A stretch of 64,000 bases of DNA from an uncultured Desulfobacteraceae bacterium. Lineage in GTDB: Bacteria > Desulfobacterota > DSM-4660 > Desulfatiglandales > HGW-15. The stretch is taken from NCBI GenBank assembly GCA_964418945.1, contig CAYQNR010000004.1:2156-66155 (forward strand). Direction: 5' to 3'. Both the position numbers and the translations under genes were made by a program. Positions 22,065-55,354 of this stretch are shown here, one piece after another. Within the stretch, counting starts at the first letter, position 1. Every line of letters starts with the position of its first letter. The notes under the pieces are model-generated. The model saw only the letters and a program-made list of their open reading frames with translations. It was not told where the DNA came from and searched no databases.

Positions 22065-23996
22065 ATGAAAAGAAAATTTCCTAACCTGTTCAGTCCATTA
22101 AAAGTGGGCAATGTTACTTTAAAGAATCGTATAATATCTGCACCGATGACATTCCCCATACTGACTGCTAACAGTTGTCTGACTCCAGAAGCGAACGCAT
22201 TTTATGAGCTGCGTGCAAAGGGAGGGGCAGCGGTCGTGACAGTAAGCGAATTAATAGTTCACAGCGCAACAGGCAAGTACTATCCTGTCCAGGTTCTTAT
22301 GGATGCCCCGAATGCCAAAGACAGCCTTGCAACCGCGGCGCGCGCGGTTAAGCGTCACGGGGCCATACCCAGTATGGAACTATCTCATGGCGGGAAATAT
22401 TCCCTGACAAACGCAGAGAATCCTGTCAGTTATGGCCCCAGTGATGAGTTCTCAGACGGGATTCAGTTTGCCCGTGAAATGCCCCGAGAAATTGTAGAAC
22501 AGATCATTGAAGCCTATGGGAAAGCTGCGTTATTGTGCAAAGCGGCAGGTTTTGAAATGTTGCTTATACATGCGGGACATGGGTGGCTTCTTCAACAGTT
22601 TCTGTCTCCGGCAAGCAACAAAAGGACGGATGAATACGGCGGAAGCTTGGAGAACAGAGCCCGTCTGGCACTTGAAGTCATTGATAAAGTACGTTCTGTT
22701 GTCGGACCCGGATTTCCTCTTGAACTGAGAATGAGCGCTGAGGAGTACCTGGATGACGGCTATTCCTTTGATGAAGCAATTCAATTCGCGAAACTTGCAG
22801 AAAGCAAAATTGATCTGCTCCAGGTCTCTACAGGATCTCATGAGGGAAGCTTTGAAAAGACACATCCTTCAGCATTTATGGAACGCGGTGTAAATGTGCA
22901 TTATGCTGAAAAAATAAAAAAGAATGTTTCTATCCCAGTATCTACTATCGGCGCATTGAATGAGCCTGAAATGATGGAAGATATAATCACAACAAGCAAG
23001 GCTGATGCGGTTGTAATGGCAAGGGCACTTCTGGCAGATCCCTATCTGCCGAAAAAGGCATTCATGGGTAAAGACGAAGAGATAGTCCGCTGTTACAGAT
23101 GCTTTGTCTGCATGGGCGAACGCATGAACACAGGTTTGCGTATTTGCGCATTGAATCCGGTTATAGGCAGTGAATATGAAGCTAATTTTATTCATTCTAC
23201 AGTCAAACCAAAGAATCTTCTCATAGCGGGTGGAGGTCCCGCAGGGATGCAGGCAGCTATAACAGCCGCCGAACGCGGACACAATGTAATACTCTGTGAG
23301 AAAAGTGATGAGCTAGGAGGTGCGCTCAAAGCAGTGAAAGGAATCCCGTTTAAGAAGGATCTATTCAAATTCATTGCCACAAAAACCCTTCTAATGGAAA
23401 AAGCAGGAGTCGATGTACGATTGAATACAGAGGTTACATCTGATCTTGTAGAAAGCATTGAGCCTGATGTTCTCATTATTGCTGTCGGAGCTGAGCCGAT
23501 CATTCCATCCATGCCGGGTATTAATGGCTCTAATGTAATTATAGCTAATGATCTTCCTGATCAATATGATAAGATTGGTCATAAGGTCGTTGTGCTCGGC
23601 GGCGGACTTGTGGGATGTGAGACAGCAGTACACATGGCACAGGAAGGCAAAGACGTAACTGTCATTGAGATGCTGCACGAAGTCTGCCCAGACGCCAATC
23701 CACGTTACAGGCCTTTGCTTCTTGATCAGCTTGAAAAGCACGTTACCTGCAGGACTGACATGCGTGGCATTTGCATCACAGAAGAGGGACTTGTATGTGC
23801 TGATACAGATAGTAATGAAATTCTTTTTGATGCTGGTACGATCATTTGTGCTGTAGGGCAGAAACCGCTTCGCAGCGTTGTGGATAAACTTCGCAACTGC
23901 GCGCCTGAAGTAATTGAGATCGGCGACTGCGTAAAGCCCGGTCATGTAACCGAGGCAGTGTTCCGCGGATACTGGGCAGGGATTGATATTGAATGA
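22065..23996 (+). CDS. OYE-like FMN / Fe-S / FAD-NAD(P) oxidoreductase (2,4-dienoyl-CoA / enoate reductase family)
   Basis: N-terminal TIM-barrel OYE pattern, Cys cluster CYRCFVCMGERMNTGLRIC, and a GGGPAG dinucleotide fold. Confidence 0.88.
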   Translation: MKRKFPNLFSPLKVGNVTLKNRIISAPMTFPILTANSCLTPEANAFYELRAKGGAAVVTVSELIVHSATGKYYPVQVLMDAPNAKDSLATAARAVKRHGAIPSMELSHGGKYSLTNAENPVSYGPSDEFSDGIQFAREMPREIVEQIIEAYGKAALLCKAAGFEMLLIHAGHGWLLQQFLSPASNKRTDEYGGSLENRARLALEVIDKVRSVVGPGFPLELRMSAEEYLDDGYSFDEAIQFAKLAESKIDLLQVSTGSHEGSFEKTHPSAFMERGVNVHYAEKIKKNVSIPVSTIGALNEPEMMEDIITTSKADAVVMARALLADPYLPKKAFMGKDEEIVRCYRCFVCMGERMNTGLRICALNPVIGSEYEANFIHSTVKPKNLLIAGGGPAGMQAAITAAERGHNVILCEKSDELGGALKAVKGIPFKKDLFKFIATKTLLMEKAGVDVRLNTEVTSDLVESIEPDVLIIAVGAEPIIPSMPGINGSNVIIANDLPDQYDKIGHKVVVLGGGLVGCETAVHMAQEGKDVTVIEMLHEVCPDANPRYRPLLLDQLEKHVTCRTDMRGICITEEGLVCADTDSNEILFDAGTIICAVGQKPLRSVVDKLRNCAPEVIEIGDCVKPGHVTEAVFRGYWAGIDIE

Positions 23997-24054
23997 AGAA
24001 TAGTCAATCACAGGTCCCTTAAATCAAGAAAGAAAAATCATTCGATGCTCTGGA

Positions 24055-24400
24055 ATGGCCCTGCCAAAAAGCGACGGGATGGAGGCACTTGCCTCCATGC
24101 CTGGCGAGGCGAAGCTGTGCGAAGACTGCTGTTCTCATATTCCCAATAGGGGAAAACAGATGGTCAGCTATTATGGCTGTTATAATAATGTGAGTCGCGG
24201 AAAACGGAAAAATCAGGACCAGGACAAACTAATCCCCTCCAGCTTGGAACCGGATGAATCATTAAGAAAACCCTTAAGAACCGGTCAAGGCTGATTGAAA
24301 AGATCTAGGAAGAGTACCCGCTGACTTGCCTAAAACGTTCTTCTGCCAAATCTTCCGGTCTTGCTCATAATGCCCAGCACATTATTTTACTTTGATCTGT
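24055..24400 (+). pseudogene. IS91-family transposase C-terminal remnant
   Basis: ...HIPNRGKQMVSYYGCYNNVSRGKRK resembles the IS91 C-terminal region. Homology continues in another frame with an internal stop (RLIEKI*EEYPLTCLK). Confidence 0.5.
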
Positions 24401-24738
24401 GATGGATCCGATATCTTAATAGACCCGCCGCCGTTTGGATTTTCATGGATTTCCCCGGTGACACAAATCGTCTTACCTACATACAAATCCTCATCCAAAT
24501 CACCTTTAATCGAATCATCCACTTCTATTCCCACAGCGCTCGGCTCCATTACCGCTGCTCCCATACCAAGAATTGTCATTCCTGAATAGGGCAAAGTGTC
24601 AACGATTTTTCCGCAAACGGTTGCCTTTTCACCCATGTGGTTCGCAGCTTCATCCCAATTGTATTCTGCAGCAAATGAAACAAAGGCTGAGAAGAAAACA
24701 AAAACAAACACCAAGCCAAGACACAATACTTTTTTCAT
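24382..24738 (-). CDS. Small exported protein of unknown function
   Basis: Signal peptide MKKVLCLGLVFVFVFFSAFVSFA. AAGGAGG lies upstream of ATG 24738. Confidence 0.6.
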   Translation of the reverse strand: MKKVLCLGLVFVFVFFSAFVSFAAEYNWDEAANHMGEKATVCGKIVDTLPYSGMTILGMGAAVMEPSAVGIEVDDSIKGDLDEDLYVGKTICVTGEIHENPNGGGSIKISDPSQIKVK

Positions 24739-24890
24739 AATAACCATACCTCCTTAATTAGATTAATGGTTCATCGTGCAATCAACACACCACTGCACAT
24801 CTCTGAATACAACCCCAAACAACACCTTCTGTCCAAAACGGTGGGGATTAAGACACATTAAAGATATAAAAATCGAACTACAAACTGATC

Positions 24891-26990
24891 CTATATCTGA
24901 TTACCAATTCTCCAGCCTGCGGCGATTGCATCAGGTATTATCGCGGGATCATCGCAGTCACCGATTGCGTAGAGCTCTGGCACCTTTCCTTGAAGTTCTT
25001 CATATAAGCCGACATTTCGCGCAAATCCAATAGGTATGATATGATCTGCTGCTAATGTTTTTTCCTCACCTTCTTTAGTGATTATTTTTAATCCTTCTTT
25101 ATTGATTTCGACCAGTTTAACTCCTGCATATGTTTTAACACCCTTTTTCCTGAACCATATTAACAGACGATTTGTAAATTCGGGGATAAGCATGTCTCCA
25201 AGCTCATCACTGGGTTCAACTATGGTTACCTTTCGCCTTCTTTTAGCCATGAATTCACCTAACTCACATCCCTGAATGGCGCCACCTATTATAACAACCC
25301 TTTTCCCGATAGGCTTAAAGGGATTCCATCCAGCGGGAGTCCATATTTTAGTAAACCAATTTGCGAAACTCGGACTAAAGAATCTGAGAACAAATTTTAC
25401 TAACCTATACAGAGTAGTTGTTTTAATGACATTAGGGCTGTCAAGTCCCGGTATATCCGGATACTTTGGCACAGCTCCCAATGCAACAACCACGGCATCC
25501 GGTTTCTCTGCGAGTATTTTAGACGAATCAGGCATTTTTCTCAGATGGACCTTAACTCCAAGCTTTTTAAGCTGGGTCTTAAACCACTTTACGATTTCTG
25601 GAAGGTCTTCGAGCTCAGTACCTTTTATAGCTGCTGCACATGGTAAATTTCCACCCAGGTATGGTTCCATTTCATACAATGTCACATCATGGCCTCTGAT
25701 GGCACTGATTCTGGCTGTCTGCATCCCAGCGGGCCCGCCGCCGATCACTACTACTTTTTTCTTTTTGTCTGCTTTGTCCACTTCGTACTTATCAGTGCCG
25801 AAAGACGCATTTATACGGCATTCCCTAGGTTCATTATATATTTTGGCGCAGTTAACGCAATGGGTACACGGCACTATATCTTCAAGACGGCCTTCTCTTG
25901 CCTTGTTTGCATACTGCGGATCCGCAAACACTCGCCTGTTAAAACCGATAATGTCAGCCTGGCCTTTTTGAAGGACCATTTCCGCGGTATCAGCGGTGAA
26001 TCCGCCTGTAGTCATAATGGTTGGCTTGGTGACAGTATTTTTAATTACTGCGGAAGACGGTACGGTGATCAGATCCCCATAATTGCTAAAGTCCATCTCC
26101 TCTGGTAGATCTTCCTTGGGAATGCAAAGTTCAGGGTACCAGAGTACATTATGAAGGTAAGAACCCTGGTGATGCCCAACCAGATGATTCCTGACCTGCA
26201 AAGAATCAACACCGATTGATTCGTATATCTTCGCAATCTCAATACCTTCTTCCCAGGTTATTCCCTGATCGCCTAAACCAAATTCATAGGCGTTCATAAG
26301 TACCTGGACCGGCCAGTCTTCTCCACACCGTTTCTTGATCTCTTTTACGGTGTTAACAACGAATCTCATCCTATTTTCCCACGACTGTGGGCCGTATTCA
26401 TCATCACGCCTGTTCCAGTAACGTGAAATAAAGGTATGGAAAAGATGATCAGCACCGGCGTTTATTTCAACACCATCAAAACCGGCCTTTTGGACTCGTA
26501 CCGCACAGCTGGCGAAATGGTCGACCAACCATTCTATCTCTTCAACGCTTAATGCCCTTGGCGGCTCTTCTTCATGAACGTCATATTCCGATGTGAAATG
26601 AACAGCTGAAGAGGCAACACGATCTGCTATGAATTGATATTCCTTCCCCCACGGGCCGCGGTGATAGAATTGAACAAATGCCTTACAATCGTGTTTATGA
26701 ATAGCTGCAGTTAACTCAGAGATATTGTCTATATACATGTCATTATCAACGCGAAACCTGCGATCGCCTTCTTCGAGCAACGGCCATTCCATGGCAGGTG
26801 TTTCAACTATAATAAGACCGACACCGCCTTTAGCTACAGCTTCATAGAATGCCAAGGCGAGGCTGCCGACACGCTTCTCTCCTGATTCGAAAAAATATGT
26901 CTGTGCTGCCGTTTTAACAAACCTGTTTTTTAATTGAACCTTTCCTATATGATATGGTGAAAAAAGTTTTTCGTATTTATTCCTTGCCAC
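24891..26990 (-). CDS. OYE-like FMN / Fe-S / FAD-NAD(P) oxidoreductase, paralogue 2
   Basis: OYE N-terminal domain, CTHCVNCAKIYNEPREC cluster, and GGGPAG fold. GTG start with GGAGGA upstream. Confidence 0.88.
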   Translation of the reverse strand: MARNKYEKLFSPYHIGKVQLKNRFVKTAAQTYFFESGEKRVGSLALAFYEAVAKGGVGLIIVETPAMEWPLLEEGDRRFRVDNDMYIDNISELTAAIHKHDCKAFVQFYHRGPWGKEYQFIADRVASSAVHFTSEYDVHEEEPPRALSVEEIEWLVDHFASCAVRVQKAGFDGVEINAGADHLFHTFISRYWNRRDDEYGPQSWENRMRFVVNTVKEIKKRCGEDWPVQVLMNAYEFGLGDQGITWEEGIEIAKIYESIGVDSLQVRNHLVGHHQGSYLHNVLWYPELCIPKEDLPEEMDFSNYGDLITVPSSAVIKNTVTKPTIMTTGGFTADTAEMVLQKGQADIIGFNRRVFADPQYANKAREGRLEDIVPCTHCVNCAKIYNEPRECRINASFGTDKYEVDKADKKKKVVVIGGGPAGMQTARISAIRGHDVTLYEMEPYLGGNLPCAAAIKGTELEDLPEIVKWFKTQLKKLGVKVHLRKMPDSSKILAEKPDAVVVALGAVPKYPDIPGLDSPNVIKTTTLYRLVKFVLRFFSPSFANWFTKIWTPAGWNPFKPIGKRVVIIGGAIQGCELGEFMAKRRRKVTIVEPSDELGDMLIPEFTNRLLIWFRKKGVKTYAGVKLVEINKEGLKIITKEGEEKTLAADHIIPIGFARNVGLYEELQGKVPELYAIGDCDDPAIIPDAIAAGWRIGNQI

Positions 26991-34345: not shown

Positions 34346-34642
34346 CTAAAGCTGATGGACTTTTCCTGTTTCTTTATTCTTCCAGTACCCCCTCAGCGCC
34401 AGCGGCCAGTTAAACTGGATAGCCCCGGGTACGGGGCAGTCATTGACGCAGCAACCGCCGTACCAGCATTCTTCAGGGTGCAGGATAATAGGCGGTTTGC
34501 CCTTCTGCGGATGGGGTATAAATACATCTATCTGGCATGCTTCCACGCAGACGTTGCACCCGGTACAAACATCCTCGTTGAATAATACCGGCTGGCTGGG
34601 TGTGGCAACATTGGGAATAGCGAATGTTTCTTCCTTGGACAC
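34346..34642 (-). CDS. 2x[4Fe-4S] ferredoxin-like protein (AprB-like partner)
   Basis: CTGCNVCVEAC and CWYGGCCVNDCP motifs. Start moved to GTG 34642 (TAGGAGG 6 nt upstream). ATG 34732 lies inside the upstream gene and has no SD. Confidence 0.8.
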   Translation of the reverse strand: MSKEETFAIPNVATPSQPVLFNEDVCTGCNVCVEACQIDVFIPHPQKGKPPIILHPEECWYGGCCVNDCPVPGAIQFNWPLALRGYWKNKETGKVHQL

Positions 34643-34685: not shown

Positions 34686-36632
34686 CTATTTTCTTCGGTA
34701 AACACCGGTATAGTCTTTATTGTGAGCTTCATACTGCTGTTGCATATCGCCCCAGAATGTAATAGGAAGCTCGCCGATTTTTACCTTATCGTTTTCCAGT
34801 TTGACGGTCAGGTACTTGTTCCACTCCGGCGGATCGACCGCAGGGTAATCGATCCTGTGCAGATTCAAAGGGATGCTGCTGGCCTTACGCGCCCTGGAAG
34901 CATGAATGATGATCTTCGCATAATTCAGAAGACTGATGTCCTCAAGACTGCGCATCAGCTTATGGGGATCAAGGGCATACAGGGTAGGCACGGTCTCTTC
35001 CTCAATCTTCTGCAAAGCCTCGAGCCCTATCTGGAAAAGCGATTCGGTCTTGAATTCACTGACATAATACTGCATCACCCTGGAAATACCGGCGTGCAGC
35101 TCTTTCCATTCAATACCGCTGCTACGCCTCACCGGTGCATAAACTCGCGATTTTTCAACTTCAATCTGGTCACGGGACATTTTGGATTCGCTAATTTCCT
35201 TGGCATAAGCGGCGGCTTTTCGGCCCGCGTACCGGCCGGTTGCGGCAGCATAACTATGATCCTCGGGAGAAAACATCTGGGTCCCGGCGGCGTACAGCCC
35301 GTCCAGAGATGTTTTCAGGTTCCAGTCCACCAGCAGGCCTCCGCCATAACCGGCTTCCCGCCACTGGGGCAGGCTTTGTCCTTCGATAAACTTGTAGCCC
35401 TGAAGCAGGTCGCGGCCGGGATCGAAGCCAGCCTGGTTGTAAGTGTCAATAATGACCCTGGTGGTGGATTCTTCACCAAGCATCAATCTCCAAGTGACGT
35501 TTCTCTCCACTTCCGGCATGGAAGGAAAATCGGCGTAAAAAGGCAGGGAGTATTCGCCTTTCATAATCCCTTCATGGATTTTGGCGGTTACTTCGGGAGT
35601 CGGCACCATTGCGCCGGCATCTTCCCAACCCTGTATGGGATAGGGAAGCCTCTTTCCGTTGGCGTCCACGATAGGAACATTCTCGTAGCTGGCGTCCCCG
35701 CCCCCGGTATACCACTTATGTTTCAACCCGGTGGCGATCATAATAACTCCGGTGGCTTCCATGTTGGTCAGCTCCGCTCCGGCCCTCCAGGCCATTACCG
35801 TTCCGTCGCCGGAAACCGTGCGGGGAATCATGTTGGAATATCCTCCATGCTCCATACTCATCAACCATATGGATCCGGCCCCGGCAGTGGCTAAAATGGT
35901 GGCCTTGGATCTAAAAATCATGAATTCGCCGGTACGGTTGTTCAGGCCGGTAGCCCCGATCACCCGGGCGCCCTGGATCCCGTTCTCGGTGAGCAGGCCG
36001 GTCCCCATCACCCGGTCGAAGATCTTAACCCCCAGGCGCTCGCATTCCTTTTTAAGAGCGGGTTTAAAGGTACTCCCCCAAATCCGTATCACCACATTGT
36101 TCCGTTTGTCCGGGGGATTAAAATTGGGTTCTCCCATTCTGGGATCTGGCAAATAGCTGTGAATGGTGCCGTAACGCGGGGAAATCATGAACTTGGTCTT
36201 ATCGTCTCGTTCTTCGGCACCGACGTATTCGTCGTCCGTATCCCTTATTTTGCCTCCCATCTGCTCCATCTCCAGCAAAGTGTCAAAATTCTCCCGGCAC
36301 TGGATCTGGATGCCAATACCGTTGCTATAGGGCCGGTCGGCCATATGCCGCGCCCAGTCGTCCGGAGTAACCCTGGACAGAGGATTGGCCGGAGCATCGC
36401 ACCAGTGGTCGCATCCCGGCCCACCGGCACCGCTTCTGACGGTATCGCCCTTTTCCACTAAAGCCACATTCAGCCCTTGCCTGGCCGCGCTGATCGCCGC
36501 CCAGCATCCGGCGATACCTCCTCCTATCACCAAGACATCGGTCTCGATTTCCTGTTCCTCTTCAAAACGGATAGGATAGGGCCAACTGGGAGGCCGACCT
36601 TCCTCCTTTAAGTAATCATGCCAAGTAGTCAT
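34686..36632 (-). CDS. FAD-dependent oxidoreductase, AprA / fumarate-reductase flavoprotein superfamily
   Basis: DVLVIGGGIAGCWAA dinucleotide fold and AprA/SdhA-like length and pattern. It is paired with the ferredoxin. Confidence 0.82.
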   Translation of the reverse strand: MTTWHDYLKEEGRPPSWPYPIRFEEEQEIETDVLVIGGGIAGCWAAISAARQGLNVALVEKGDTVRSGAGGPGCDHWCDAPANPLSRVTPDDWARHMADRPYSNGIGIQIQCRENFDTLLEMEQMGGKIRDTDDEYVGAEERDDKTKFMISPRYGTIHSYLPDPRMGEPNFNPPDKRNNVVIRIWGSTFKPALKKECERLGVKIFDRVMGTGLLTENGIQGARVIGATGLNNRTGEFMIFRSKATILATAGAGSIWLMSMEHGGYSNMIPRTVSGDGTVMAWRAGAELTNMEATGVIMIATGLKHKWYTGGGDASYENVPIVDANGKRLPYPIQGWEDAGAMVPTPEVTAKIHEGIMKGEYSLPFYADFPSMPEVERNVTWRLMLGEESTTRVIIDTYNQAGFDPGRDLLQGYKFIEGQSLPQWREAGYGGGLLVDWNLKTSLDGLYAAGTQMFSPEDHSYAAATGRYAGRKAAAYAKEISESKMSRDQIEVEKSRVYAPVRRSSGIEWKELHAGISRVMQYYVSEFKTESLFQIGLEALQKIEEETVPTLYALDPHKLMRSLEDISLLNYAKIIIHASRARKASSIPLNLHRIDYPAVDPPEWNKYLTVKLENDKVKIGELPITFWGDMQQQYEAHNKDYTGVYRRK

Positions 36633-36671: not shown

Positions 36672-38375
36672 TTAACGCCAGTCATCGATCAGGACGCTTT
36701 GACGGGGCGCCATTCCTCCATAACTCCAGTAATTATTATTAGATCCTCCGGTGACCACAATGTTTATTTGCGGACGAAACCATGACGGCATCTTCGCCTG
36801 GGGAGGACCGCCTTGTCCTTCCGGGCGCGCCGCAAGGAATTTTTCAAGCTCCTCGACCGTTTCGAAGCCTTCTTCTTTCATGAAATTGGCGACCGGCGGA
36901 CTCAGCACCGCCATAGCGCCGAAAAGCATATCCTGGTCGTTGACGATCTTTTTGAGTGTCCCGGAAAAATCCATCTCTTTTTCCCAAACGCTGTATTTCG
37001 AGTTTTTCGCCGACAGGATCCCCCACCCCTCGCAGAGCGTCACAACGCTGTCAGACGGCTTGAAACCTCTCCGCACATGGAAAGGCTGCCACGGAGACTC
37101 CTCCTCGTTTTCGGCCATGATTACATTGTTCCAGTTCATGGGATTGCCGATAACACCCATATAGGTAGTCCCCACTCTGCCGCAGTTGCCGGCGTTGATA
37201 GACAGCAGGTTCCATGCCCTTCCTATGGTGGAATTGGCCTGGCTGAATGGCCCTAAGGCGCCTATGCCGTAATTGAGGCCTATTTCGTCGCGTATGGGCC
37301 CGTTAATAATCAGACCTTCGGTAAAGGAGTTGTCGGAAACCGAAATAGCCTCTTTCCCGGTCGAGGCCACCGCCAGGATTACCGGAAGGTATTCCGGTTT
37401 GGCACCGGCCATGACAGCGTTGATGGCAACCGTTCTTACCGTATAAGACCAATGTTCGAAAACTTCCACATTGTTTTCTCCCGGCATGGCTGTATGCGCC
37501 GCCATTTTCCCGACCACCTCATCAGGATGGTGACTGGTCCCTTTCAGCATCTCGGCGACCTTCTCTTCGGTCGGCAGGATGATCGGCATATAATCGGTCA
37601 TCCTCTTTTCCAGAAACATCTGCTGCAGATTCTCCGGAGTATCGGTGAAACGCTCCGGCCCTGTCTCTGGTTCTATGGTTCCGGTCATCTTTTCCTCGGC
37701 GGTCAACGGTTTGGCGAGATTCTCCACTATTTCCTGCATGATCATTTTTCCACTTATAGGACTCTCGCTCACGATATCTTTCCGGATCTGTTCTGCCTTT
37801 TTCCCCCATACCGGCGAAATGAGATAGGTAACGCGAAGGTTGGGCATTCCTTTCTGTATGGTATGGTGGGTCTTTACCTGTTCGTAAAATGCGGAGATGA
37901 TCAGGGGAACGGTGGGAACACCGAGCTTCGATTCGATATTTATGCAATGGCCAACGACCGCGGCCACACAGAGGCTTCAATGCCCCATTCCCATAATAAC
38001 CGCGTCGGCCTTTTCCTTAATTTCCGCCCATAAGGCCGGATCTTCCGCAGTGAATCCTCCGCCACTCATCCTCTTATAAATAGTGCTAACTTCAGGCATG
38101 TTTTCCTTGAACCACGCCTGCATTTCCCCGAGAAGGATATCGGTTCCCAGGTAGCCATCATTAACCAGATAGACCGTCTTGCCGTCCAAAGAATCCAGCC
38201 GGGGAGCCATCTGTTTTAGCTGGATGGCAGGCGGTTGCCCCCTTGGATTGAGCACGGTAATTTGCCGCTCGCTGGCTTGCCCTTGCGCCAGAATCGGCGT
38301 ATTAAGAACCGGATACATACAAAACAAGCTCAGAAACAACAAGGCGATTAGCGTTATCGAAATGTGCCGCCTCAT
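36672..38375 (-). CDS. Candidate selenoprotein: UGSC-like domain (H-U-S-L-C, TGA at 37977-37979) fused to a ~430-aa domain of unknown function
   Basis: ORFs 37977-38495 and 36672-37967 are in frame and separated only by TGA. AGGGAGGA precedes ATG 38375. A hairpin with a GGUC loop follows the TGA. Confidence 0.6.
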
Positions 38376-38403
38376 TTCTCTATCCTCCCTGTACTTATAG
38401 TTG

Positions 38404-38461
38404 TTGATAAAAATTCGCTTTTTAATGAACGGAGTATAGAAGATTTGCAGTTGTATGTCAA
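38404..38461 (-). promoter_or_regulatory. Promoter plus leader box (copy P3)
   Basis: Read on the minus strand: TTGACA, 17-nt spacer, TATACT, 9 nt, then AAAAAGCGAATTTTTATCAA. Confidence 0.65.
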
Positions 38462-38775
38462 ATAAACTCTGCCGCACATTTCGGCTGGAAATCACAAGCT
38501 GGATTTAAGGGCTCTAATCAGCAAGGGAACAGATTCAAATACTGTAATGTCTATGACGGCATCATCAATGATATCAAATATCTATGCATCTGTGACCCCA
38601 CCGCCAGTGTCATGGTACGAATGCTATGTTCCCTGGTCAAAGGTAAGAGTATAAACGAGGCGGAACCTCTCACCGGAAAATCTTTTTCACAGGGGATGGG
38701 AGGCGGTATTATTCTTAATTGACAAATAGATGCATAAGTGATATTTGAATAAAAATATGTATTGTTTTCTATAAT

Positions 38776-38863: not shown

Positions 38864-41518
38864 GTGAAAACCGTAACCTTAACTGTGAATGGAGTAAAAA
38901 GGAAGGTTGATGCCAGCCCGGACCTGGTGTTGCTCGACCTGCTGCGCGAAGAACTCGACCTTACCGGGACCAAGCAGTCCTGTGACCGCAAAGGCCAGTG
39001 CGGTGCCTGTACGGTAATCGTCGATGGCAAAGCAACGCGTTCCTGTTTGAAGAAAGTAGTCGACCTGGAGGGAGCGGATGTCATCACTGTAGAGGGCCTG
39101 GGCACGCCTGATAATCCCCACCCCGTCCAGGAAGCCTTTGTCCTGACAGGCGCTATCCAGTGCGGCTACTGCACGCCGGGCATGATTATGGCCACCAAAG
39201 CCCTGCTCGATCAGAATCCCGATCCTGACACAGCTGCGATCAAGAAAGCGCTGGCACACAATCTTTGCCGCTGTACCGGCTACGTAAAAATAATCGATGC
39301 CATAAAGTTAGCCGGTAAATTCCTGCGGGGGGAGACCACACCGGCGAAGGTCCGTGCCAATATCGATAAAGATAAGATGATTGGTGAATCCCATCCCCGT
39401 CCTTCTTCCATGCTTAAAGCCTGCGGCCTGGCTAAGTTCGGCGGAGACTATAAAATGGATAACATGCTGGAAATAGCCGCGGTGCACAGCACTGAATTCC
39501 ATGCCATTATCAAGTCCATCGACACTTCTGCAGCAAAGGAGATGCCGGGTATGGTCGGCGTGATGACGGCGGAAGATATTAAGGGCACCAACCGCCTCCC
39601 CTTTATCGCCCTAGACCAGCCCGTGCTCTGTGAGGACAAGGTAAGGGCCTATGGCGACCCGCTGGCTATTGTCGCTGCGGAGACCAGGGAACAGGCACGA
39701 GCCGCTGCCGCCGCCGTAAAGGTTACTTACGAAAAACTACCGGTGATGAAAACACCGGAAGAAGCCCTGGCACCGGCCGCGGTGCAGATTCACCCCCATT
39801 CGCCCAACCTCTGTTTCCAGCAGCCCCAAATAAAGGGCGACGCTGACAAAGCGCTCAAAGACGCGCACGGGGTAATCGAAGCAGACTTTTCCACGCAAAT
39901 GAACCACCAGTCACCCCTGGAACCGGAAGCCTGCTTCTGTTATTTAGACGGTAATGAACTGGTGGTTATCGGGCGGAGCATCATGATTCACGCCCATGCC
40001 GGCATGATTCAGGGAGCCGTCGGCGCGGAAAAGGTTCGCTATATCGAGCCCTACTCCGGGGGCCAGTTCGGTATTAAAGCCAACATCTCATCGGAAGGCA
40101 TTGCCGCCGCGGCCGCCATGCATTTTAAGCGTCCCATCCGCTATATACCCAGCCTGGCGGAATCGTTCCTTATTACATCCAAACGCCATCCCTTCTCCAT
40201 GAAGACAAAACTGGCCGCTGATGCAAAAGGGAACCTTACCGCTTACTTTAATGATTTTATCATGAACAAAGGCGCCTATTTCCTGCTTGGCCCCATTATG
40301 GCGGGGCGCGCCCTGCACATGCTGAACGGAGCGTACAATATACCTAACATTTCCGCTTTAGTTAAACTGGTTTATACCAATAACGGAAGCGGCGGTGCTG
40401 CCCGGGGAGCCGGACCGCCCCAGGTCATGTTCGCACTGGAATCACTGATGGATATGATGGCGGAGAAGCTGGGCATGGACCCGCTGGAATTCCGCAAGAT
40501 GAATGCCCTCAAACCGGGTCAGACACGCTCCACGGGTGCTCCTATAGACCAGACCTCCTTCCCGGAGCTGTGCGATGATATCAGACCGCACTACGAACGC
40601 GCTAAGAAGGATGCCGCTGCCTTCAATAAAAAGGGCGGCAAGATAAAACGTGGCGTGGGTATCGCCTGCATGTCCTTCGGCATTGCCGAAGCCGGCGACC
40701 GTGCCGATAATGCCGTGGAGATAAATCCTGATGACACTGTTACCATTTATGCCGCCATCGCCGACCCCGGTGAAGGCAACGACTCTATGCTTTCGCAACT
40801 GGCAGCCCAGGTTCTCGGTCTGCCTCTGGAAAAGATAAAACTCTATACTCGCGACACGGATAAGACTGTAGCGGCGGGGCCCTCTGCCGGCAGTCGGCAG
40901 ACCTATATGGGCGGCGGGGCCCTGGTCAACGGACTTGAAAAAATGGCTAAGGCCATGGAAGAAGCCGGCTCCAAGACCTACTCCGGACTCAAGAAGGCCG
41001 GCAAACCCACCCGCTATGAGGGCACGAAGCAAATTGCGGGTAAAGACGAGTTCGATCCCAAGACCGGGCAAACCGACTCTTTTGACTCCCAGGTACACAA
41101 CATCCAAATGGCAGAGGTTGAAGTTGATACAGAGACAGGCAAGACCAAAGTTCTAAAAATGACCACTGCCGTTGACGCTGGCCCCATTATCCACCCGCAG
41201 AACCTGGAAGGTCAGTTGGAAGGCGGTATGGACCAGGGTATTGGCTATGCTTTAAGGGAAGAATTCGTTCTTGGCGAGACCAAGGACTGGATAACATTCA
41301 AATTCCCCACCATTGCAGATTCCTTCGAGGTGGAGTTCGTCAAACGTGAGACTCCCCGCATCAGAGGCACACTAGGCTCTACCGGCATCGGCGAGATGAC
41401 GATGGTTTCTACCGCGCCAGCAGTTACAAACGCTATCTATAACGCCTGCGGCGCCAGGATTCACCACCTACCCGCCACTCCGGATAAAGTAAAGGCTGCA
41501 ATAGCCGCTAAAACATAA
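38864..41518 (+). CDS. Molybdopterin aldehyde oxidoreductase, [2Fe-2S]x2 + Moco fusion (Desulfovibrio gigas Mop-type architecture)
   Basis: N-terminal CoxS-like 2Fe-2S motifs (CDRKGQCGACTV; CGYCTPG; CRCTGY) run continuously into a CoxL/XDH-like Moco domain. No FAD domain is present. GTG start. Confidence 0.9.
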   Translation: MKTVTLTVNGVKRKVDASPDLVLLDLLREELDLTGTKQSCDRKGQCGACTVIVDGKATRSCLKKVVDLEGADVITVEGLGTPDNPHPVQEAFVLTGAIQCGYCTPGMIMATKALLDQNPDPDTAAIKKALAHNLCRCTGYVKIIDAIKLAGKFLRGETTPAKVRANIDKDKMIGESHPRPSSMLKACGLAKFGGDYKMDNMLEIAAVHSTEFHAIIKSIDTSAAKEMPGMVGVMTAEDIKGTNRLPFIALDQPVLCEDKVRAYGDPLAIVAAETREQARAAAAAVKVTYEKLPVMKTPEEALAPAAVQIHPHSPNLCFQQPQIKGDADKALKDAHGVIEADFSTQMNHQSPLEPEACFCYLDGNELVVIGRSIMIHAHAGMIQGAVGAEKVRYIEPYSGGQFGIKANISSEGIAAAAAMHFKRPIRYIPSLAESFLITSKRHPFSMKTKLAADAKGNLTAYFNDFIMNKGAYFLLGPIMAGRALHMLNGAYNIPNISALVKLVYTNNGSGGAARGAGPPQVMFALESLMDMMAEKLGMDPLEFRKMNALKPGQTRSTGAPIDQTSFPELCDDIRPHYERAKKDAAAFNKKGGKIKRGVGIACMSFGIAEAGDRADNAVEINPDDTVTIYAAIADPGEGNDSMLSQLAAQVLGLPLEKIKLYTRDTDKTVAAGPSAGSRQTYMGGGALVNGLEKMAKAMEEAGSKTYSGLKKAGKPTRYEGTKQIAGKDEFDPKTGQTDSFDSQVHNIQMAEVEVDTETGKTKVLKMTTAVDAGPIIHPQNLEGQLEGGMDQGIGYALREEFVLGETKDWITFKFPTIADSFEVEFVKRETPRIRGTLGSTGIGEMTMVSTAPAVTNAIYNACGARIHHLPATPDKVKAAIAAKT

Positions 41519-42735: not shown

Positions 42736-43704
42736 TTATTCTTCTTCTTGCACCCAGGGAGAATCGTGCTCACCGCTGAGGCAGCAGACAATAAAGGCGT
42801 AGGGCTTATCCATCCACCTGGTGATGAGGGGGAGATGGGGAAAGCCGGAAGGGCAGACGGCGACAGTAGGCGTGTTGAAGACATGCCTTTCGTATTCCTT
42901 GCCCATAGCCAGCTCCTGCTCACACCCCAGAAAATTCAGGTCATCCGGGTCAAGGCCGAGAAAGACCAGTATTTCCTCGGAAGGATGGTAGTGGGCTTCG
43001 CCGCCGCGGTGCCATATACCTGAGCCGGTGTAAAATCCCCAGGTGAAATTGATTTCAAACCCCTCCAGGTCTTTACCGTAGAGCCAGACAAGTTGGTCAG
43101 CGTTCCCCGGCCCCAGAAGGCCCACCTGGCTCATATCCATTTCAGAATCAGGATGCTCCTTCTTGAACTCCGCCAGCAGACGCTCATCCTTGGCAATAAT
43201 TGACATCCTGACCGGTTCGAAGCCGGGACCAAGCGGTTTAACCAGGTGCCCATACTTGGAACCCGTTGTTTTAGCCTCTTCCGGGAGCGGTTCAGCCTTG
43301 TAGTCCGCGGCCAGACCGATATGGTAATGGGCAATAGGTTTATCTACTTTTCTCACCGTAACCGGGCCGTGCGGTGTCCCTTTGGGGACGATGATTACCG
43401 AAGGTACGTTAAAGATATGCTCCTCGCGTTCCTCGCCCAGTTCTACCGATATTTCGGCACCCAGATAGGTGATATCGGTGTTATCGGTGCCGGCAAAAAC
43501 CAGGCACTCGTCGTAGGGGTGAACCAGCGCCCCTTTAGCGGGGTGAAGCTTGCTGGCTTTTTTAACAAACCCGTACGAGAAATTGGCGTTGAACCCTTCC
43601 ATATCCTTGCCTTCCATCCATATCCACGGCTCGGGATATAAACCTTCCGGCGGTTTTTGGACCAGTAGAGATTTTATCAGATGGGCATACTTTTTCTCGG
43701 CCAT
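42736..43704 (-). CDS. Bicupin protein, uncharacterised family (paralogue 2)
   Basis: Carries the same signature as 19547-20461. It is a tandem duplicate of 43744-44718. Confidence 0.75.
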   Translation of the reverse strand: MAEKKYAHLIKSLLVQKPPEGLYPEPWIWMEGKDMEGFNANFSYGFVKKASKLHPAKGALVHPYDECLVFAGTDNTDITYLGAEISVELGEEREEHIFNVPSVIIVPKGTPHGPVTVRKVDKPIAHYHIGLAADYKAEPLPEEAKTTGSKYGHLVKPLGPGFEPVRMSIIAKDERLLAEFKKEHPDSEMDMSQVGLLGPGNADQLVWLYGKDLEGFEINFTWGFYTGSGIWHRGGEAHYHPSEEILVFLGLDPDDLNFLGCEQELAMGKEYERHVFNTPTVAVCPSGFPHLPLITRWMDKPYAFIVCCLSGEHDSPWVQEEE

Positions 43705-43743: not shown

Positions 43744-44718
43744 TTAGGCCTCTACCCAGGGCGAGGCGTGTTCGCCGCTTAGGCAGACAACGATAAAGCC
43801 ATAAGGCTTATCCACCCACCTGGTGATGAGGGGGAGGTGGGGGAAACCCTCGGGGCAGACGGCAACGGTAGGCGTATTAATGATATGTCTCTCTTGGTCC
43901 TTGCCCATACCCAGTTCTAATTCAGCCCCCAAGTAATCCATGTTATCCGGGTCAAGGCCGACATAGACCAATATTTCCGCTTCCGGGTGGTAGTGGGCTT
44001 CGCCGCCGCGGTGCCATTTGCCGCAGTGGGAGTGAAAGCCCCAGGTGAAATTGACCTCAAACCCCTCCAGGTCCTCACCAAAGAGCCAGACAGTCTGGTC
44101 TCCGTTTCCCGGACCAACTCCCCTCTCCGCCGGGTGCATTACGCCGGCACGGTCAGCAATAAAGGCATAACTAAGTGGGTCGCCGGGGGGTGGCGGGCCG
44201 GCGGACTTTCGCTCATCGAACGCCTTCCAGTCAATGTACGTAATCATTCTTTTAATCAAATGGTCGTATTTTGAACCCTTTGTTTTGGCGTTTCTAGGAA
44301 CCGGGGTTGCCTTGTAGTCAGCACCCAAGCCGATGTGGTAATGGACTATAGGTCTGTCCACCCGCCGGTAAGTAACCGGCCCGTGTGGCATCCCCTTGGG
44401 GATAAGCACTACCGATGGCTCGGTAAAGACGTGCTCTTCAGCCTCTTCGCCCAGCTCTATAGATACCTCGGCACCCAGATAGAGTATATTACTGGTATCG
44501 GTTCCCTCAAAAACCAGGCACTCATCGTAAGGGTGCACCAGTGCCCCTTCAAGGGGATGGCAAACGCCGGTATTCTTAACAAAACCAAAGGAAAAATTGG
44601 CGTTGAACCCCTCCATGTCCTTGCCTTCCATCCAGAAAAGCGGATCGGGATATAAGCCGGCGGGTCCCTTCTTGGCAATGAGCGGTTTTATCAGATGGGA
44701 ATACTCTTTCTTGACCAT
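43744..44718 (-). CDS. Bicupin protein, uncharacterised family (paralogue 3)
   Basis: EAHYHPEAEILVYVGLD...CPEGFPHLP. AAAGGAGG lies upstream of the start. Confidence 0.75.
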   Translation of the reverse strand: MVKKEYSHLIKPLIAKKGPAGLYPDPLFWMEGKDMEGFNANFSFGFVKNTGVCHPLEGALVHPYDECLVFEGTDTSNILYLGAEVSIELGEEAEEHVFTEPSVVLIPKGMPHGPVTYRRVDRPIVHYHIGLGADYKATPVPRNAKTKGSKYDHLIKRMITYIDWKAFDERKSAGPPPPGDPLSYAFIADRAGVMHPAERGVGPGNGDQTVWLFGEDLEGFEVNFTWGFHSHCGKWHRGGEAHYHPEAEILVYVGLDPDNMDYLGAELELGMGKDQERHIINTPTVAVCPEGFPHLPLITRWVDKPYGFIVVCLSGEHASPWVEA

Positions 44719-49806: not shown

Positions 49807-52224
49807 ATGTATGAACTAACCCCGGTTACTGATCGTGTTAAAAGAATTCGTGAAAAATATCGGTCAACCAGGCCAAAGATGTGTATAGCCCGTTATAAGA
49901 TTGTAACGGATTTTTATAAAGAAAACCCGCAATTGCAGGGGATTTTAAAAAGAGCTAAGAATTTCAAGAATCTCTGTGAAAAACTACCTGTCTTGATCAA
50001 CGATGATGAAGTGATCGTGGGCTGGCAGGCCACTTCATACAGGGCCTGCGCACTTTACCCCGAAATATCTATCGGCTGGCTTCTGGATGAACTGAGGGAA
50101 GGATCAATCCCGCACAGGGAATGCGATCCATATATAGTTGATCCTGAAGATGCTGAGTATGTTTTAAGCACCGGGGACTTCTGGTTAAAGGAGTGTCTTA
50201 GCGCAAAGGTGGATGAATATATTCCTCTGGGATATCATAAACACGTAGGAAACGGGGTTGTGACTTTTGGAATAAAGGATACCAGCCAATCTCCTGTCGG
50301 TCATTTTGTCGCTAATTTTGACAAAGCTATCAATAAAGGTTTCGGTGCGATCAGGGCGGAAGCTCAGGCGAAAATGGACGAACTGGAAGGTGTCATGTTC
50401 GGAGATAGTGCTGCCAAATATAATTTTTATCGTGCCGTTACTATTGTATGCGATGGTTTGATTGGTTTCTCAAAGAGATACGCTGAAAGATGCAAACAAT
50501 TAGCTTCAGTTGAAACCAATTCGAATCGAAAAAAAGAACTGGAAGAAATGGCGGATGTTCTTAACTGGATAATGCAGAATCCCTGTCGTAACTTTCATGA
50601 AGCAATACAGTGTATGTATATGTATCAGCTCTGCATGTGCCTTGACGGCCAACAACATGGTATCAGCTACGGCCGCGTAGACCAGTATGTTGGTCAGTTT
50701 TATAAAGCTGATATTGCCGCCGGTACTATCAGCCATGACAGGGCACAGGAACTTCTGGACTTATTCTATTTGAAAGTAGCTGAAATGAACAAAATATGGC
50801 CTTACTTTGCCACACTTTCCGGACCCGGATATACAAGCGGTCAGCTTATGACCATAGGCGGTGTAGATAAAGACGGTAATGATGCAACAAATCCTGTATC
50901 ACCTATGATGCTTCAATCTGCCGGACGTCTGGCCCTGCATGATCCGCCCCAAGCGATGCGCGTCCATAAAGGCACTCCCCCTGGACTATGGGAAGCTGCT
51001 ATTGAAACAACACAGCTTGCTGGCGGAGTTCCGACATTTGAGAATGACGATGTTATTATTCCTGCGCTTATGGAAAGAGGCCTTCCGCTGGAAAGCGCGA
51101 GGAACTACTGTCTTATAGGATGTGTCGAACCTCAGGGATGCGGAGATGAATGGGCCTCCCCGGGCGGCAATGGTACGGAATCGTTCTGGAATATGCTCAA
51201 TGCATTCCTGCTGGCAATCAATAACGGCTACAACCCGATGCCCGGCAGGGACGGCAAGCTTGGAGGCCAGGTAGGACTGCCCACAGGCTATCTTTATGAA
51301 ATGGAAACCTTTGATGAAGTACTTGAAGCAGTAAAGAAACAAATGGAATATTTCGCCAAATGGCAGGTTACCCTTGTGAATTCATGGGAATACGTTGCCT
51401 CCGAACACATGCAGCTTCCTCTCGTATCTGCAACTATCGATGGATGCATGCAGTCAGGCAAAGATGTTATGAAGGGAGGAGCTAAATACAATGCAACCGG
51501 CAACGCGGCAATTGCCATTGGCAATATTACTGACAGCCTTGCTGTGGTGAAATATATGGTATATGATAAAAAACTGGTAAGCGCGAGAGAACTTTATGAT
51601 GCGATAATAAATAACTGGGAAGGCAAAGAAGACTTGCGGCAGCAGATAATCAATGAGGCCCCTCATTACGGTAACGACAATGAGCACACAGATCAATTTG
51701 CAAAATGGGCATCAGCTATATACGCAGATATCATTAACTCATCCACCGGGCCACGCGGGAGATGGTCTGCCGGATTATTTCCGGTCACAACTCATGTTCT
51801 TTTCGGGTGGCTTACAGCTGCATCGCCTGATGGAAGGAAGGCCGGCGAGCCGCTTGCCGACGGAATTTCGCCTGTGCAGCAGATGGACAAAAACGGCCCT
51901 ACTGCTGTTGCAAAATCCGTCTCAGCTATTGATCAGAAAAAATTCTCTAACGGCACGTTGCTTAATATGAGATTCCACCCAACCGCGTTAAGAAATGAAA
52001 CAGGGAAAGAAAAGCTCAAGGCTCTGATAAAGACTTATTTCAAACTTGGCGGTATGGAAATGCAGTTTAATATTGTAAGCGCAGATACTCTCAGAAAAGC
52101 GCAGCAGGAACCGGAAGAATACAGGGATCTGGTTGTCAGGATTGCAGGTTTCAGTGCTTACTTTGTGGAAATTTACAAAGCCAGCCAGGAAGATATCATA
52201 AAACGAACCGAACTGAACCTTTAA
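49807..52224 (+). CDS. Glycyl-radical enzyme, PFL2/diol-dehydratase-type (1,2-eliminase class), substrate unknown
   Basis: C-terminal glycyl motif VRIAGFSAYFVEI. Cys loop LIGCVEPQG with the Glu two residues after Cys. Confidence 0.9.
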   Translation: MYELTPVTDRVKRIREKYRSTRPKMCIARYKIVTDFYKENPQLQGILKRAKNFKNLCEKLPVLINDDEVIVGWQATSYRACALYPEISIGWLLDELREGSIPHRECDPYIVDPEDAEYVLSTGDFWLKECLSAKVDEYIPLGYHKHVGNGVVTFGIKDTSQSPVGHFVANFDKAINKGFGAIRAEAQAKMDELEGVMFGDSAAKYNFYRAVTIVCDGLIGFSKRYAERCKQLASVETNSNRKKELEEMADVLNWIMQNPCRNFHEAIQCMYMYQLCMCLDGQQHGISYGRVDQYVGQFYKADIAAGTISHDRAQELLDLFYLKVAEMNKIWPYFATLSGPGYTSGQLMTIGGVDKDGNDATNPVSPMMLQSAGRLALHDPPQAMRVHKGTPPGLWEAAIETTQLAGGVPTFENDDVIIPALMERGLPLESARNYCLIGCVEPQGCGDEWASPGGNGTESFWNMLNAFLLAINNGYNPMPGRDGKLGGQVGLPTGYLYEMETFDEVLEAVKKQMEYFAKWQVTLVNSWEYVASEHMQLPLVSATIDGCMQSGKDVMKGGAKYNATGNAAIAIGNITDSLAVVKYMVYDKKLVSARELYDAIINNWEGKEDLRQQIINEAPHYGNDNEHTDQFAKWASAIYADIINSSTGPRGRWSAGLFPVTTHVLFGWLTAASPDGRKAGEPLADGISPVQQMDKNGPTAVAKSVSAIDQKKFSNGTLLNMRFHPTALRNETGKEKLKALIKTYFKLGGMEMQFNIVSADTLRKAQQEPEEYRDLVVRIAGFSAYFVEIYKASQEDIIKRTELNL

Positions 52225-52260
52225 ACGAAGAATCTTACCCGCCTCCGCAGTATGCTACGG

Positions 52261-52368
52261 CCTCCAAACCGTGGAGGAATGCGGGTATCCTCCAAATCCT
52301 TGGCTAAGGAAGACTGAAGCTTCGGCGGGTTACGCTGCACCAAAGGTGCCACGGGTTCCTGTCCGTGG
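52261..52368. repeat. REP-like hairpin cluster between the GRE and its activase
   Basis: CCTCCA-aaccg-TGGAGG; GCACC-aaa-GGTGC; CCACGG-gttcctgt-CCGTGG. The segment CCTCCGCAGTATGCTACGG is related to 32491-32515. Confidence 0.6.
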
Positions 52369-52422
52369 GGCTCCACTTTTGCCCGGTATCTTAACTGATG
52401 TGGAAATTTAAGATGCAGATGT

Positions 52423-52448
52423 AAGGGCGGCGTTATCGTCGCCCTTTT
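52423..52448 (+). terminator. Terminator/attenuator-like hairpin between the GRE and its activase
   Basis: AAGGGCG-(10 nt)-CGCCCTT followed by TT. The T-tract is short. Confidence 0.4.
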
Positions 52449-52468
52449 GGTAAAAGGACTATAGTAAT

Positions 52469-53422
52469 TTGGAAAGACAATTAACCGGGAAAGTCTATGA
52501 CATTCAGGGATTTTCAGTACAGGACGGGCCCGGAATCCGCACAACGGTTTTTCTAAAGGGATGTCCTCTTCGCTGCCCGTGGTGCCATAGCCCTGAATCT
52601 CAGCAATTTCACGCACAGCTCAGCTGGATGGAAATGAAATGCGTGGGAATAGACGAATGTGGAAAATGTCTGGAGGCATGCTCCAAAGGCGCGATCTCTC
52701 CCGGAAAAGTCAAAAAACATCCGGTTACACAGGAGGATATCAGACATATCCATATAGACAGAACAATCTGTGATAACTGCGGCGATTGCGCTGATGTATG
52801 CTATCACAAAGCGTTATATATTTGTGGCACGGATTACACTGTAGAAGAACTGGTAGAGCGACTGAGCAAGGACATTCCCTTTTACGAAGAATCCGGCGGC
52901 GGAGTAACAGTTTCAGGCGGTGAACCTTTATCTCAACCGGAATTTACCCTGCAGTTGTTAAAAAGTCTTAAAGAACAAGGAATCCACACTGCACTTGATA
53001 CAACCGGTCATGCTCAATATAGATTTATTGAACAGATTCTGCTGTATACGGATTTATTTCTGTACGATCTAAAACATATGGACAGTGAACAACACAAAAT
53101 AGTCGGTGTAAACAATAAGCTGATACTGGAGAATGCCCAAAAAATTGCAACAGCCGGCGGTAATATACAGATCCGTATACCCGTAATCCCGAATTTCAAC
53201 GACTCGGAAGAAAACATAAGGGAAACGGGCGAATTCTGTAAATTACTTGGCGAAGCAGTAAGTTTAGTACAACTGCTGCCATACCATAATCTTGGCGTCA
53301 TGAAATACCAGAGAATTGATGACAGCAAAAAGGTTCTGGAGGCGCCGTTACCCTCTGATAAAAAGATCCAGGCACTTAAAAGGATTCTTGAAGATATGGG
53401 ACTCCCTGTCACCGTGCACTAG
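52469..53422 (+). CDS. Glycyl-radical enzyme activating enzyme (radical SAM)
   Basis: CPLRCPWC (CxxxCxxC) plus two ferredoxin-like Cys clusters. TTG start. Confidence 0.88.
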   Translation: MERQLTGKVYDIQGFSVQDGPGIRTTVFLKGCPLRCPWCHSPESQQFHAQLSWMEMKCVGIDECGKCLEACSKGAISPGKVKKHPVTQEDIRHIHIDRTICDNCGDCADVCYHKALYICGTDYTVEELVERLSKDIPFYEESGGGVTVSGGEPLSQPEFTLQLLKSLKEQGIHTALDTTGHAQYRFIEQILLYTDLFLYDLKHMDSEQHKIVGVNNKLILENAQKIATAGGNIQIRIPVIPNFNDSEENIRETGEFCKLLGEAVSLVQLLPYHNLGVMKYQRIDDSKKVLEAPLPSDKKIQALKRILEDMGLPVTVH

Positions 53423-53484
53423 GTTTTCTCTGCATTGATATTTTTACGCCTGTTAGGTTGGATTATTTCTCGGAGGTGTTGGCC

Positions 53485-54315: not shown

Positions 54316-54346
54316 TGCGGTTTTCATTGTTATATATCCAGATTTC

Positions 54347-55333: not shown

Positions 55334-55354
55334 TATTTATCTAATTTATTCAGA

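Follow-up and report, generated by a model that had tools for sequence, protein, structure and literature searches.

UGSC proteins form a selenoprotein family that was first reported from the Sargasso Sea and Global Ocean Sampling (GOS) metagenomes (PMC2398784) and is listed in a 2026 review (PMC13188914). Here we describe a gene from an uncultured Desulfobacteraceae bacterium, located in a 64,000-nucleotide stretch of GenBank contig CAYQNR010000004.1 (positions 2,156 to 66,155; the window in what follows), that is a member of a long, exported subfamily within this family and is mis-split in public annotation. Comparison of homologous sequences indicates that window positions 38375-36672 on the minus strand constitute a single gene, in which the UGA codon at 37979-37977 is very probably recoded as selenocysteine (Sec) by means of a hairpin located 9 nucleotides (nt) downstream.

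UGSC is among the most abundant selenoprotein families in marine and freshwater GOS metagenomes, with a count of 255 Sec versus 21 Cys forms, and a thioredoxin fold has been suggested for it (PMC2398784). No function is assigned to the family in the literature found (PMC2398784, PMC13188914). A "UGSC/Unknown_1 fusion", for which the authors suggest a redox role, is noted in the 2008 GOS selenoproteome paper (PMC2398784, Fig. S1A). The selenocysteine insertion sequence (SECIS) of bacteria has been modeled as a hairpin whose stem has 4-16 base pairs (bp) and whose loop of 3-9 nt includes a G among the first two positions, with a distance of 16-37 nt between UGA and loop and a minimum free energy of at most -7.5 kcal/mol (PMC13188914).

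Our gene shares with the UGSC family its homology to Pfam PF24696, a U-x-x-C motif and a Sec at the canonical position. Its segment GMGH-U-SLC-VAAVVGH..GVPTVPLI aligns with GLGN-U-GSC-TSWSVHD..GVPAVALV of a canonical UGSC protein (locus L087), and Sec forms far outnumber Cys forms among its relatives, as they do in GOS. In contrast to the canonical U-G-S-C, the motif of the window protein is H-U-S-L-C. The precursor is also much larger, with 567 residues that include a signal peptide and a C-terminal domain that we call X, whereas canonical UGSC proteins are single-domain proteins of ~150-190 residues (model length ~147). The UGSC/Unknown_1 fusion similarly joins a UGSC selenoprotein to a conserved domain of unknown function, which may or may not be X.

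The gene and its in-frame UGA codon

Two minus-strand open reading frames (ORFs), 37977-38495 and 36672-37967, share one frame and are separated solely by the TGA at 37979-37977. Conceptual translation through this codon from ATG 38375 gives 567 codons reading ...KADAVIMGMGH-U-SLCVAAVVGHCINIESKLGVPTVPLI..., with GMGH-U-SLCVAAVVGHC around the codon. This layout had been proposed in a first-pass annotation of the DNA and is confirmed on the minus strand. The same holds for its choice of ATG 38375, which has a ribosome-binding site 7 nt upstream (AGGGAGGA at 38390-38383) and is also the start adopted by public gene callers (P0121, 132 residues, 100% identical), and for its remark that GTG 37967, the start of the downstream ORF, has no Shine-Dalgarno sequence at a usable distance. 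The annotation had further placed the start codon behind one copy, P3, of a repeated promoter; a promoter-like site does exist there, while its repetition is unconfirmed, as no second match within three mismatches occurs in the 64-kb window. The features of the locus, all on the minus strand, are as follows.

38433-38461, minus strand: sigma-70-type promoter-like site TTGACA-17 nt-TATACT, 58 nt upstream of the start codon; a consensus match only (11 of 12 positions)
38383-38390, minus strand: Shine-Dalgarno sequence AGGGAGGA; read from the sequence
36672-38375, minus strand: coding sequence of the proposed long-form UGSC-family selenoprotein precursor, 567 codons and a TAA stop; from the frame, the domain that spans the TGA, the 79 of 79 loci compared below and the continuous Cys homologues
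38286-38375, minus strand: predicted N-terminal signal peptide, residues 1-30 (MRRHISITLIALLFLSLFCMYPVLNTPILA / QG); read from the sequence, as is the putative cleavage site
37779-38255, minus strand: UGSC-family domain, residues 41-199, with the U-S-L-C motif; PF24696
37977-37979, minus strand: UGA codon 133, very probably read as selenocysteine; TGA in 79 of 79 loci, 91 TGA versus 2 TGC copies, Cys in full-length homologues
37968-37970, minus strand: TGT codon of Cys136, proposed resolving partner in U-x-x-C; invariant Cys in the alignment (C3 of A8)
37947-37967, minus strand: SECIS-like hairpin GUGGCCGC-GGUC-GU(U)GGCCAU, nt 13-33 counted from the U of UGA, with the GGUC loop at 37959-37956
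36675-37658, minus strand: C-terminal domain X, residues ~240-567, outside any curated family; conserved motifs, no Pfam, NCBIfam or PDB match

The Pfam model PF24696 matches residues 41-199 with an E-value of 8.7e-22 and 78.5 bits (cut-off 25), covering model positions 2-157 of 172. The match crosses codon 133, so that the U-x-x-C pair lies inside one continuous domain, as had been anticipated from the read-through. The NCBIfam model NF041046, "UGSC family (seleno)protein", reaches 51.2 bits on the window protein and 72-84 bits on long Cys forms, below its equivalog cut-off of 125. The protein is therefore a domain-level homologue of the short UGSC family and not its equivalog, and the family assignment made by the first-pass annotation stands at the former level and fails at the latter. 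The U-x-x-C occupies the conserved position of the family after the third beta-strand, where the canonical U-G-S-C of L087 and L091 was aligned with it by eye; the window's U-S-L-C is replaced in relatives by U-S-T-C, U-S-Q-C or U-G-G-C.

An AlphaFold2 model of the Cys homologue P0336, which is 42-46% identical, was computed from an 88-sequence alignment and has a mean predicted local distance difference test (pLDDT) score of 85.6 and a predicted template-modeling (pTM) score of 0.84. Short N-terminal fragments were misplaced by MAFFT and did not serve to deepen the alignment; an earlier model of P0089 from 37 sequences had a pLDDT of 60, and its fold matches were meaningless. In the P0336 model, the UGSC domain is predicted to be an alternating beta-alpha structure with the C-x-x-C in a loop that leads from a beta-strand into the N-terminus of a helix, which is the usual setting for a redox-active pair. 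The signal-like segment that had been pointed out at the N-terminus is real, and relatives have either a similar general-secretory-type signal or, often, a clear twin-arginine translocation (Tat) signal in its place (NRRKLLSLLG, SRREFVQGV, TSRRAFFKGIAAGAAG). Judged from these signals, the long-form family is predicted to be exported.

We compared 79 loci (L001-L079), consisting of DNA from a one-genome-per-species collection, in which identity to the window protein ranges from 85% down to 40%. Most are metagenome-assembled genomes of Acidobacteriota and Desulfobacterota, with single records from Verrucomicrobiia, Dehalococcoidales, Gammaproteobacteria and Dormiibacterota. In all 79, an in-frame stop occurs at one column, G-H-stop-[S/G]-x-C, and the protein is conserved on both sides of it. 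The stop is TGA every time and never TAA or TAG. When flanking paralogs are counted, 91 copies have TGA at this column and 2 have a Cys codon (TGC). TGA is also the genuine stop of two genes on the same strand of the window, encoding an aldehyde:ferredoxin oxidoreductase (AFOR; stop at 30286) and a 418-residue protein (stop at 32997), and the organism therefore uses the standard genetic code.

Database searches reflect the same split. The read-through protein finds more than 6400 relatives, and 119 of the best 120 begin at or shortly after the TGA, most of them covering 76% of the query. The 132-residue N-terminal piece has 1404 matches, of which the best 120 are all 125-171 residues long, and those examined end at the TGA. 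C-terminal pieces that start from the TGA and N-terminal pieces that run up to it are what gene callers yield on cutting a conserved selenoprotein gene. The N-terminal ORF occurs in identical form on 23 contigs, and the division into 132 and 431 residues is seen in the six for which it was worked out (four Joint Genome Institute (JGI) metagenomes and two Logan runs).

Both Cys copies from the motif scan, GH-C-STC and GH-C-AGC, are arranged in tandem with a Sec copy on the Candidatus Acidiferrales contig of L043. A search from one of them found 26 full-length proteins of 521-615 residues among its best 120 matches. All ten full-length homologues that were retrieved carry GH-C-S-T/G-C at the aligned column, including P0259 (GH-C-S-T-C), which diverges near its C-terminus. 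The continuous Cys homologues are ~580 residues long. The first-pass annotation had left room for homologues that end at this position, with the downstream part as a separate gene; instead, the UGSC model crosses the codon, the TGA is kept in every locus, and either Sec or Cys is aligned in proteins that continue through it. The sole full-length match of the first search, P0089 (L080:359-2095), has TTA at the TGA column. We rejected it as a natural Leu form, since TTA differs from TGA by one base, the hairpin is unaltered and the sequence comes from a single contig, and an error or recent mutation is the probable explanation.

The name "UGSC family (seleno)protein" is found in NCBI on some long Cys forms and on some 428-residue truncated pieces of Sec forms. 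Thus, Cys members of the subfamily bear the family name in some records, and Sec members are split in all records examined. Thousands of relatives are divided into two "hypothetical proteins" or only partly named in public records. As a result, selenoproteome counts overlook these genes, above all for Acidobacteriota from soil and peat.

The codons next to the UGA are biased. In the window (37974-37982) and the corresponding columns of L001-L079, 76 of the 80 sequences have CAT as the preceding His codon, and a Ser after the UGA is always encoded by AGC or AGT and never by TCN. The base that follows UGA is therefore A in most copies, whereas the U-G-G-C forms have G there. This bias may reflect a context requirement of recoding. 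Tandem arrays of two or three family members are seen in L043 (164-5726), L006, L009, L014 and L096; in L043 and L096, Cys and Sec copies stand side by side, a natural system for Sec/Cys exchange. In L040 (CAWEJX010000004.1), a frameshifted N-terminal half precedes an intact GH-U-SLC region, which indicates either a pseudogene or an indel error of long-read assembly.

The hairpin and the reading of the codon

The hairpin that the first-pass annotation had drawn, with 8 bp, one bulged U and a GGUC loop, is part of the minimum-free-energy fold. Its position needs a small correction: it begins 9 rather than 8 nt after the UGA, and its GGUC loop occupies nt 21-24, not 19-22, when counted from the U of UGA. 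By analogy with known systems, it presumably acts as a bacterial SECIS element that would be bound by SelB·GTP·Sec-tRNA(Sec). Like the element of fdhF and other bacterial SECIS hairpins, it follows immediately 3' of the UGA within the coding sequence and has a small GGUC loop and one bulged U. We take the loop of the Escherichia coli fdhF element to be at nt 22-25 and its bulged U to be on the 5' side of the stem; the bulged U of the window hairpin is on the 3' side. Other differences from the fdhF type are the lack of an Rfam match and the use, in other clades of the family, of a G-U-C/U triloop 4 nt further downstream.

The published SECIS criteria were applied through our own implementation of the model, not through bSECISearch. 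The window hairpin agrees with the consensus in all four, with its GGUC loop, a stem of 8 bp plus one bulged U, a spacing of 17 nt and an energy of -9.0 kcal/mol. Across the family, 43 of 80 sites pass the filter, whereas the pass rate at 29,403 control positions within these genes is 11%. A single consensus hairpin for all 80 sequences was tried and rejected, as RNAalifold gave only 3 pairs. The global consensus is poor because the clades use two registers, and the clades were analyzed separately.

The apical loop contains G-U in both registers. Type 1 is the register of the window clade and its closest relatives, with a 6-bp stem and a [G/A]GU[C/U] tetraloop. Its pair 24/33 is G-C in 22 sequences and A-U in 7, at synonymous third-codon positions of Pro and Val. 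Type 2 has the G-U-C/U triloop; its pair 28/36 is A-U in 27 and G-C in 13 sequences with no breaks, and its pair 30/34 is C-G in 26 and G-C in 11. The covariation score of each sub-alignment is reached by 0 of 500 shuffles, counts that are not probabilities because the sequences are related. The paired fraction is 86-89%; with the partner columns slid, it does not exceed 76% in type 1 or 45% in type 2. Among four-fold degenerate codons at +5 to +10, only two or three codons are used, whereas most such sites elsewhere in the stretch use four.

The strongest test of the tie between hairpin and UGA is the comparison with Cys forms. Those in L043, L092, L095 and L096 encode TPATVGHC, TPATVAHC or TPATIGHC, the same or nearly the same peptide as the Sec forms. 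All four break an A-U pair that never varies among the Sec forms of the clade, and their synonymous positions vary freely. The hairpin is therefore conserved among orthologous Sec forms, as the first-pass annotation had expected of a SECIS element, through compensatory and synonymous-site changes, and it decays in Cys forms.

Several observations weigh against a recoded UGA. At a background of 11%, the SECIS filter alone is weak; the energy of the hairpin is ordinary relative to shuffled sequences (z 0.43); and Rfam yielded no SECIS or other RNA family, either at gathering thresholds over the whole window or at E <= 10 around the UGA. For these reasons, the case rests on the comparative evidence, in which the relatedness of the sequences limits the shuffle test, part of the between-clade covariation is accompanied by changes of amino acid, and the most distant clade has hairpins whose energy is only borderline (-7.1 to -7.8 kcal/mol). 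No gene for SelA, SelB, SelD or tRNA-Sec was found in the 64-kb window or in the fetched flanks of the loci (tRNA-Sec by ARAGORN in the window and 60 loci), and the window contains no tRNA gene. The Sec machinery of this organism is thus assumed; Acidobacteria and Deltaproteobacteria have been reported as Sec users (PMC1794560).

Among the alternatives, decoding of the UGA as a standard amino acid (Trp, Cys or Gly) through near-cognate decoding or an altered code fares best, and even this we regard as very improbable. Bacteria are known to read through UGA with tRNA-Trp or tRNA-Cys, and an assumed Sec machinery leaves room for it. However, TGA terminates neighboring genes, and the carriers belong to standard-code phyla. 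Homologues that lack the UGA have Cys in a C-x-x-C redox motif, the classical Sec/Cys pair, and the conserved hairpin, with its G-U loop at SECIS distance, accompanies UGA and decays with UGC. Moreover, UGSC is an established selenoprotein family (PMC2398784, PMC13188914).

A genuine stop, which would leave either two genes (one for an exported protein of 132 residues and one for 431 residues from GTG 37967) or one gene killed by a nonsense mutation, is less probable again. Every public gene caller annotates the locus in this way, and no sel genes are visible in the window. Nevertheless, one domain model crosses the TGA, GTG 37967 has no ribosome-binding site, and continuous Cys versions exist; 91 copies from several phyla, with both halves conserved, would not all share TGA at one column if it were a nonsense mutation. 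Least of all do we credit a sequencing or assembly error for TGT or TGC in a Cys form, a concern of the first-pass annotation: Cys forms exist and P0089 has its single-contig TTA one base from TGA, but several separate samples of JGI and Logan, with 23 contigs among them, have the identical 132-residue ORF ending at TGA, which excludes an assembly error, and TGA is present in 79 of 79 loci of other genomes.

A selenocysteine at codon 133 is unsurprising in kind, as it combines a textbook Sec/Cys pair and a SECIS element in a family already known for Sec.

Domain X and its pairing with UGSC

The first-pass annotation had left ~430 residues of the protein unassigned. The actual length is ~330-370 residues, because the UGSC domain extends beyond the UGA to residue 199. 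This part, domain X, contains the conserved motifs TD-x-MP-I-x-LPTEEKV, NAVMAG-x-x-PEY-x-P, NGPIR-x-E-x-x-LNYGIGA-x-GP, AN-x-TIGRA and AENE-x-x-SPW. It has no Pfam match at E <= 10 in 10 diverse members, no sequence relative in a profile search of the PDB, and no NCBIfam model on the X region of proteins in which X stands alone or is fused in another arrangement. Among 1.84 billion representative proteins, which were searched exhaustively, X is present in 3070 representative clusters (E <= 0.001).

X occurs in several architectures: after UGSC, as in the window; alone, with ~350 residues; duplicated, with ~715 residues; before UGSC; and before an FtrB-like domain. In the X-UGSC fusion (P0488, L090), the UGSC part is again interrupted by a TGA (...GSGD-U-GGC...). 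P0508 (L091) joins X to an FtrB-like [4Fe-4S] disulfide-reductase domain, and a canonical UGSC gene (AS-U-GSC) directly precedes it. Four loci with a stand-alone X gene were examined, and in three of them a separate UGSC gene that contains Sec lies just upstream. These are L087, with GN-U-GSC; L088, with GN-U-GGC, where the stop of the UGSC gene overlaps the start of X; and the contig carrying P0491.

As fusion in either order and gene adjacency both recur, we infer from the sequences that UGSC and X work together as partners, with UGSC supplying the selenol/thiol chemistry. A two-part enzyme in which UGSC is the selenol/thiol redox half and X the other half is a tentative proposal that we hold somewhat less likely to be right than wrong. 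In such an enzyme, X would be the built-in partner of UGSC and provide the substrate-binding or catalytic part of a reductase-type reaction, as the fusions and neighborhoods suggest. By analogy with other UxxC and CxxC proteins, the selenolate of U133 would be the attacking nucleophile after export. C136, at the N-terminus of the following helix, would resolve the intermediate as a selenenyl-sulfide, which an outside donor would then re-reduce. The target of the Sec is more likely to be a substrate bound to X than a disulfide within X, which lacks a conserved Cys. Gene context hints at aldehydes and alcohols or small organic acids as candidate substrates.

Thioredoxin-fused methionine sulfoxide reductases and the U-x-x-C selenoproteins PrdB and GrdB of the Stickland reductases offer an analogy, in that each joins a U/C-x-x-C pair to a larger domain, by fusion or as a neighboring gene, an architecture which suggests that the Sec may act on a partner-held substrate. 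They differ from our protein in that no sequence or fold similarity was detected and in that X lacks a conserved Cys.

Other findings count against a joint function. Foldseek found no PDB match to the P0336 model at E <= 0.001 (best 2e-3, with TM <= 0.28 among the top matches); the family alignment shows X to be free of a conserved Cys; the X-FtrB fusion is known from one representative protein; and in L001-L079 the gene lacks the neighbors that it has in the window.

The recurrent fusion and adjacency of X give the UGSC family a concrete partner, and the export signals point to a cellular location. This partnership is a more novel by-product of the analysis than the Sec reading itself. If the proposal is true, the two-part UGSC-X enzyme would represent a new and widespread selenium-dependent reductase system of the periplasm or cytoplasm.

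Genomic neighborhood

Downstream of the gene, with no terminator between, is an FrdA/AprA-like flavoprotein of 648 residues (34686-36632, minus strand), for which every NCBIfam match is below its cut-off, followed by an AprB-like ferredoxin of 98 residues (34346-34642, minus strand). Upstream and divergent is a molybdopterin aldehyde oxidoreductase of the MOP type (Desulfovibrio gigas type) with fused 2Fe-2S domains (38864-41518, plus strand). It scores 814 bits on NF045668 (cut-off 1100), and the second-best model is a selenium-dependent xanthine dehydrogenase. The flavoprotein, the AprB-like ferredoxin, the 418-residue protein and the MOP-type oxidoreductase were considered as conserved partners and rejected, as none adjoins the gene in the 79 loci. 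In L091, an FrdA-like FAD protein and a small 2Fe-2S protein are encoded downstream of UGSC and X-FtrB.

The neighbors that do recur among the 79 loci are further copies of the family (26 loci, up to three in tandem), pyrroloquinoline quinone (PQQ)-dependent dehydrogenases (18 loci, often on the same strand) and genes for cytochrome c, Amt and GcvT-like proteins (each in a few). Possibly, the fused form of Acidobacteriota is exported by the Tat or general secretory route, amplified in tandem and located beside PQQ dehydrogenases. PQQ-dependent dehydrogenases also adjoin exported long forms in L095 (3016-6671) and L096 (4006-5889). In L095, a rhodanese and a TlpA-like redoxin are encoded between the PQQ dehydrogenase and the long-form gene, an arrangement that hints at a periplasmic thiol/selenol redox context.

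Elsewhere in the window, 42736-43704 and 43744-44718 (minus strand) are tandem paralogs of 322 and 324 residues that belong to no Pfam family and are 71-79% identical in DNA. Distant relatives of these paralogs adjoin the selenoprotein gene in L059 and L039. The regions 22065-26990 and 49807-57925 contain two enoate-reductase-like genes with old yellow enzyme (OYE) and Pyr_redox_2 domains, as well as genes for two glycyl-radical enzymes and their radical-SAM activases. Considered along with the AFOR and uroporphyrinogen decarboxylase (URO-D)-like genes, the predicted enoate-reductase-like and glycyl-radical genes suggest that the organism is a strict anaerobe and breaks down organic acids or aromatics.

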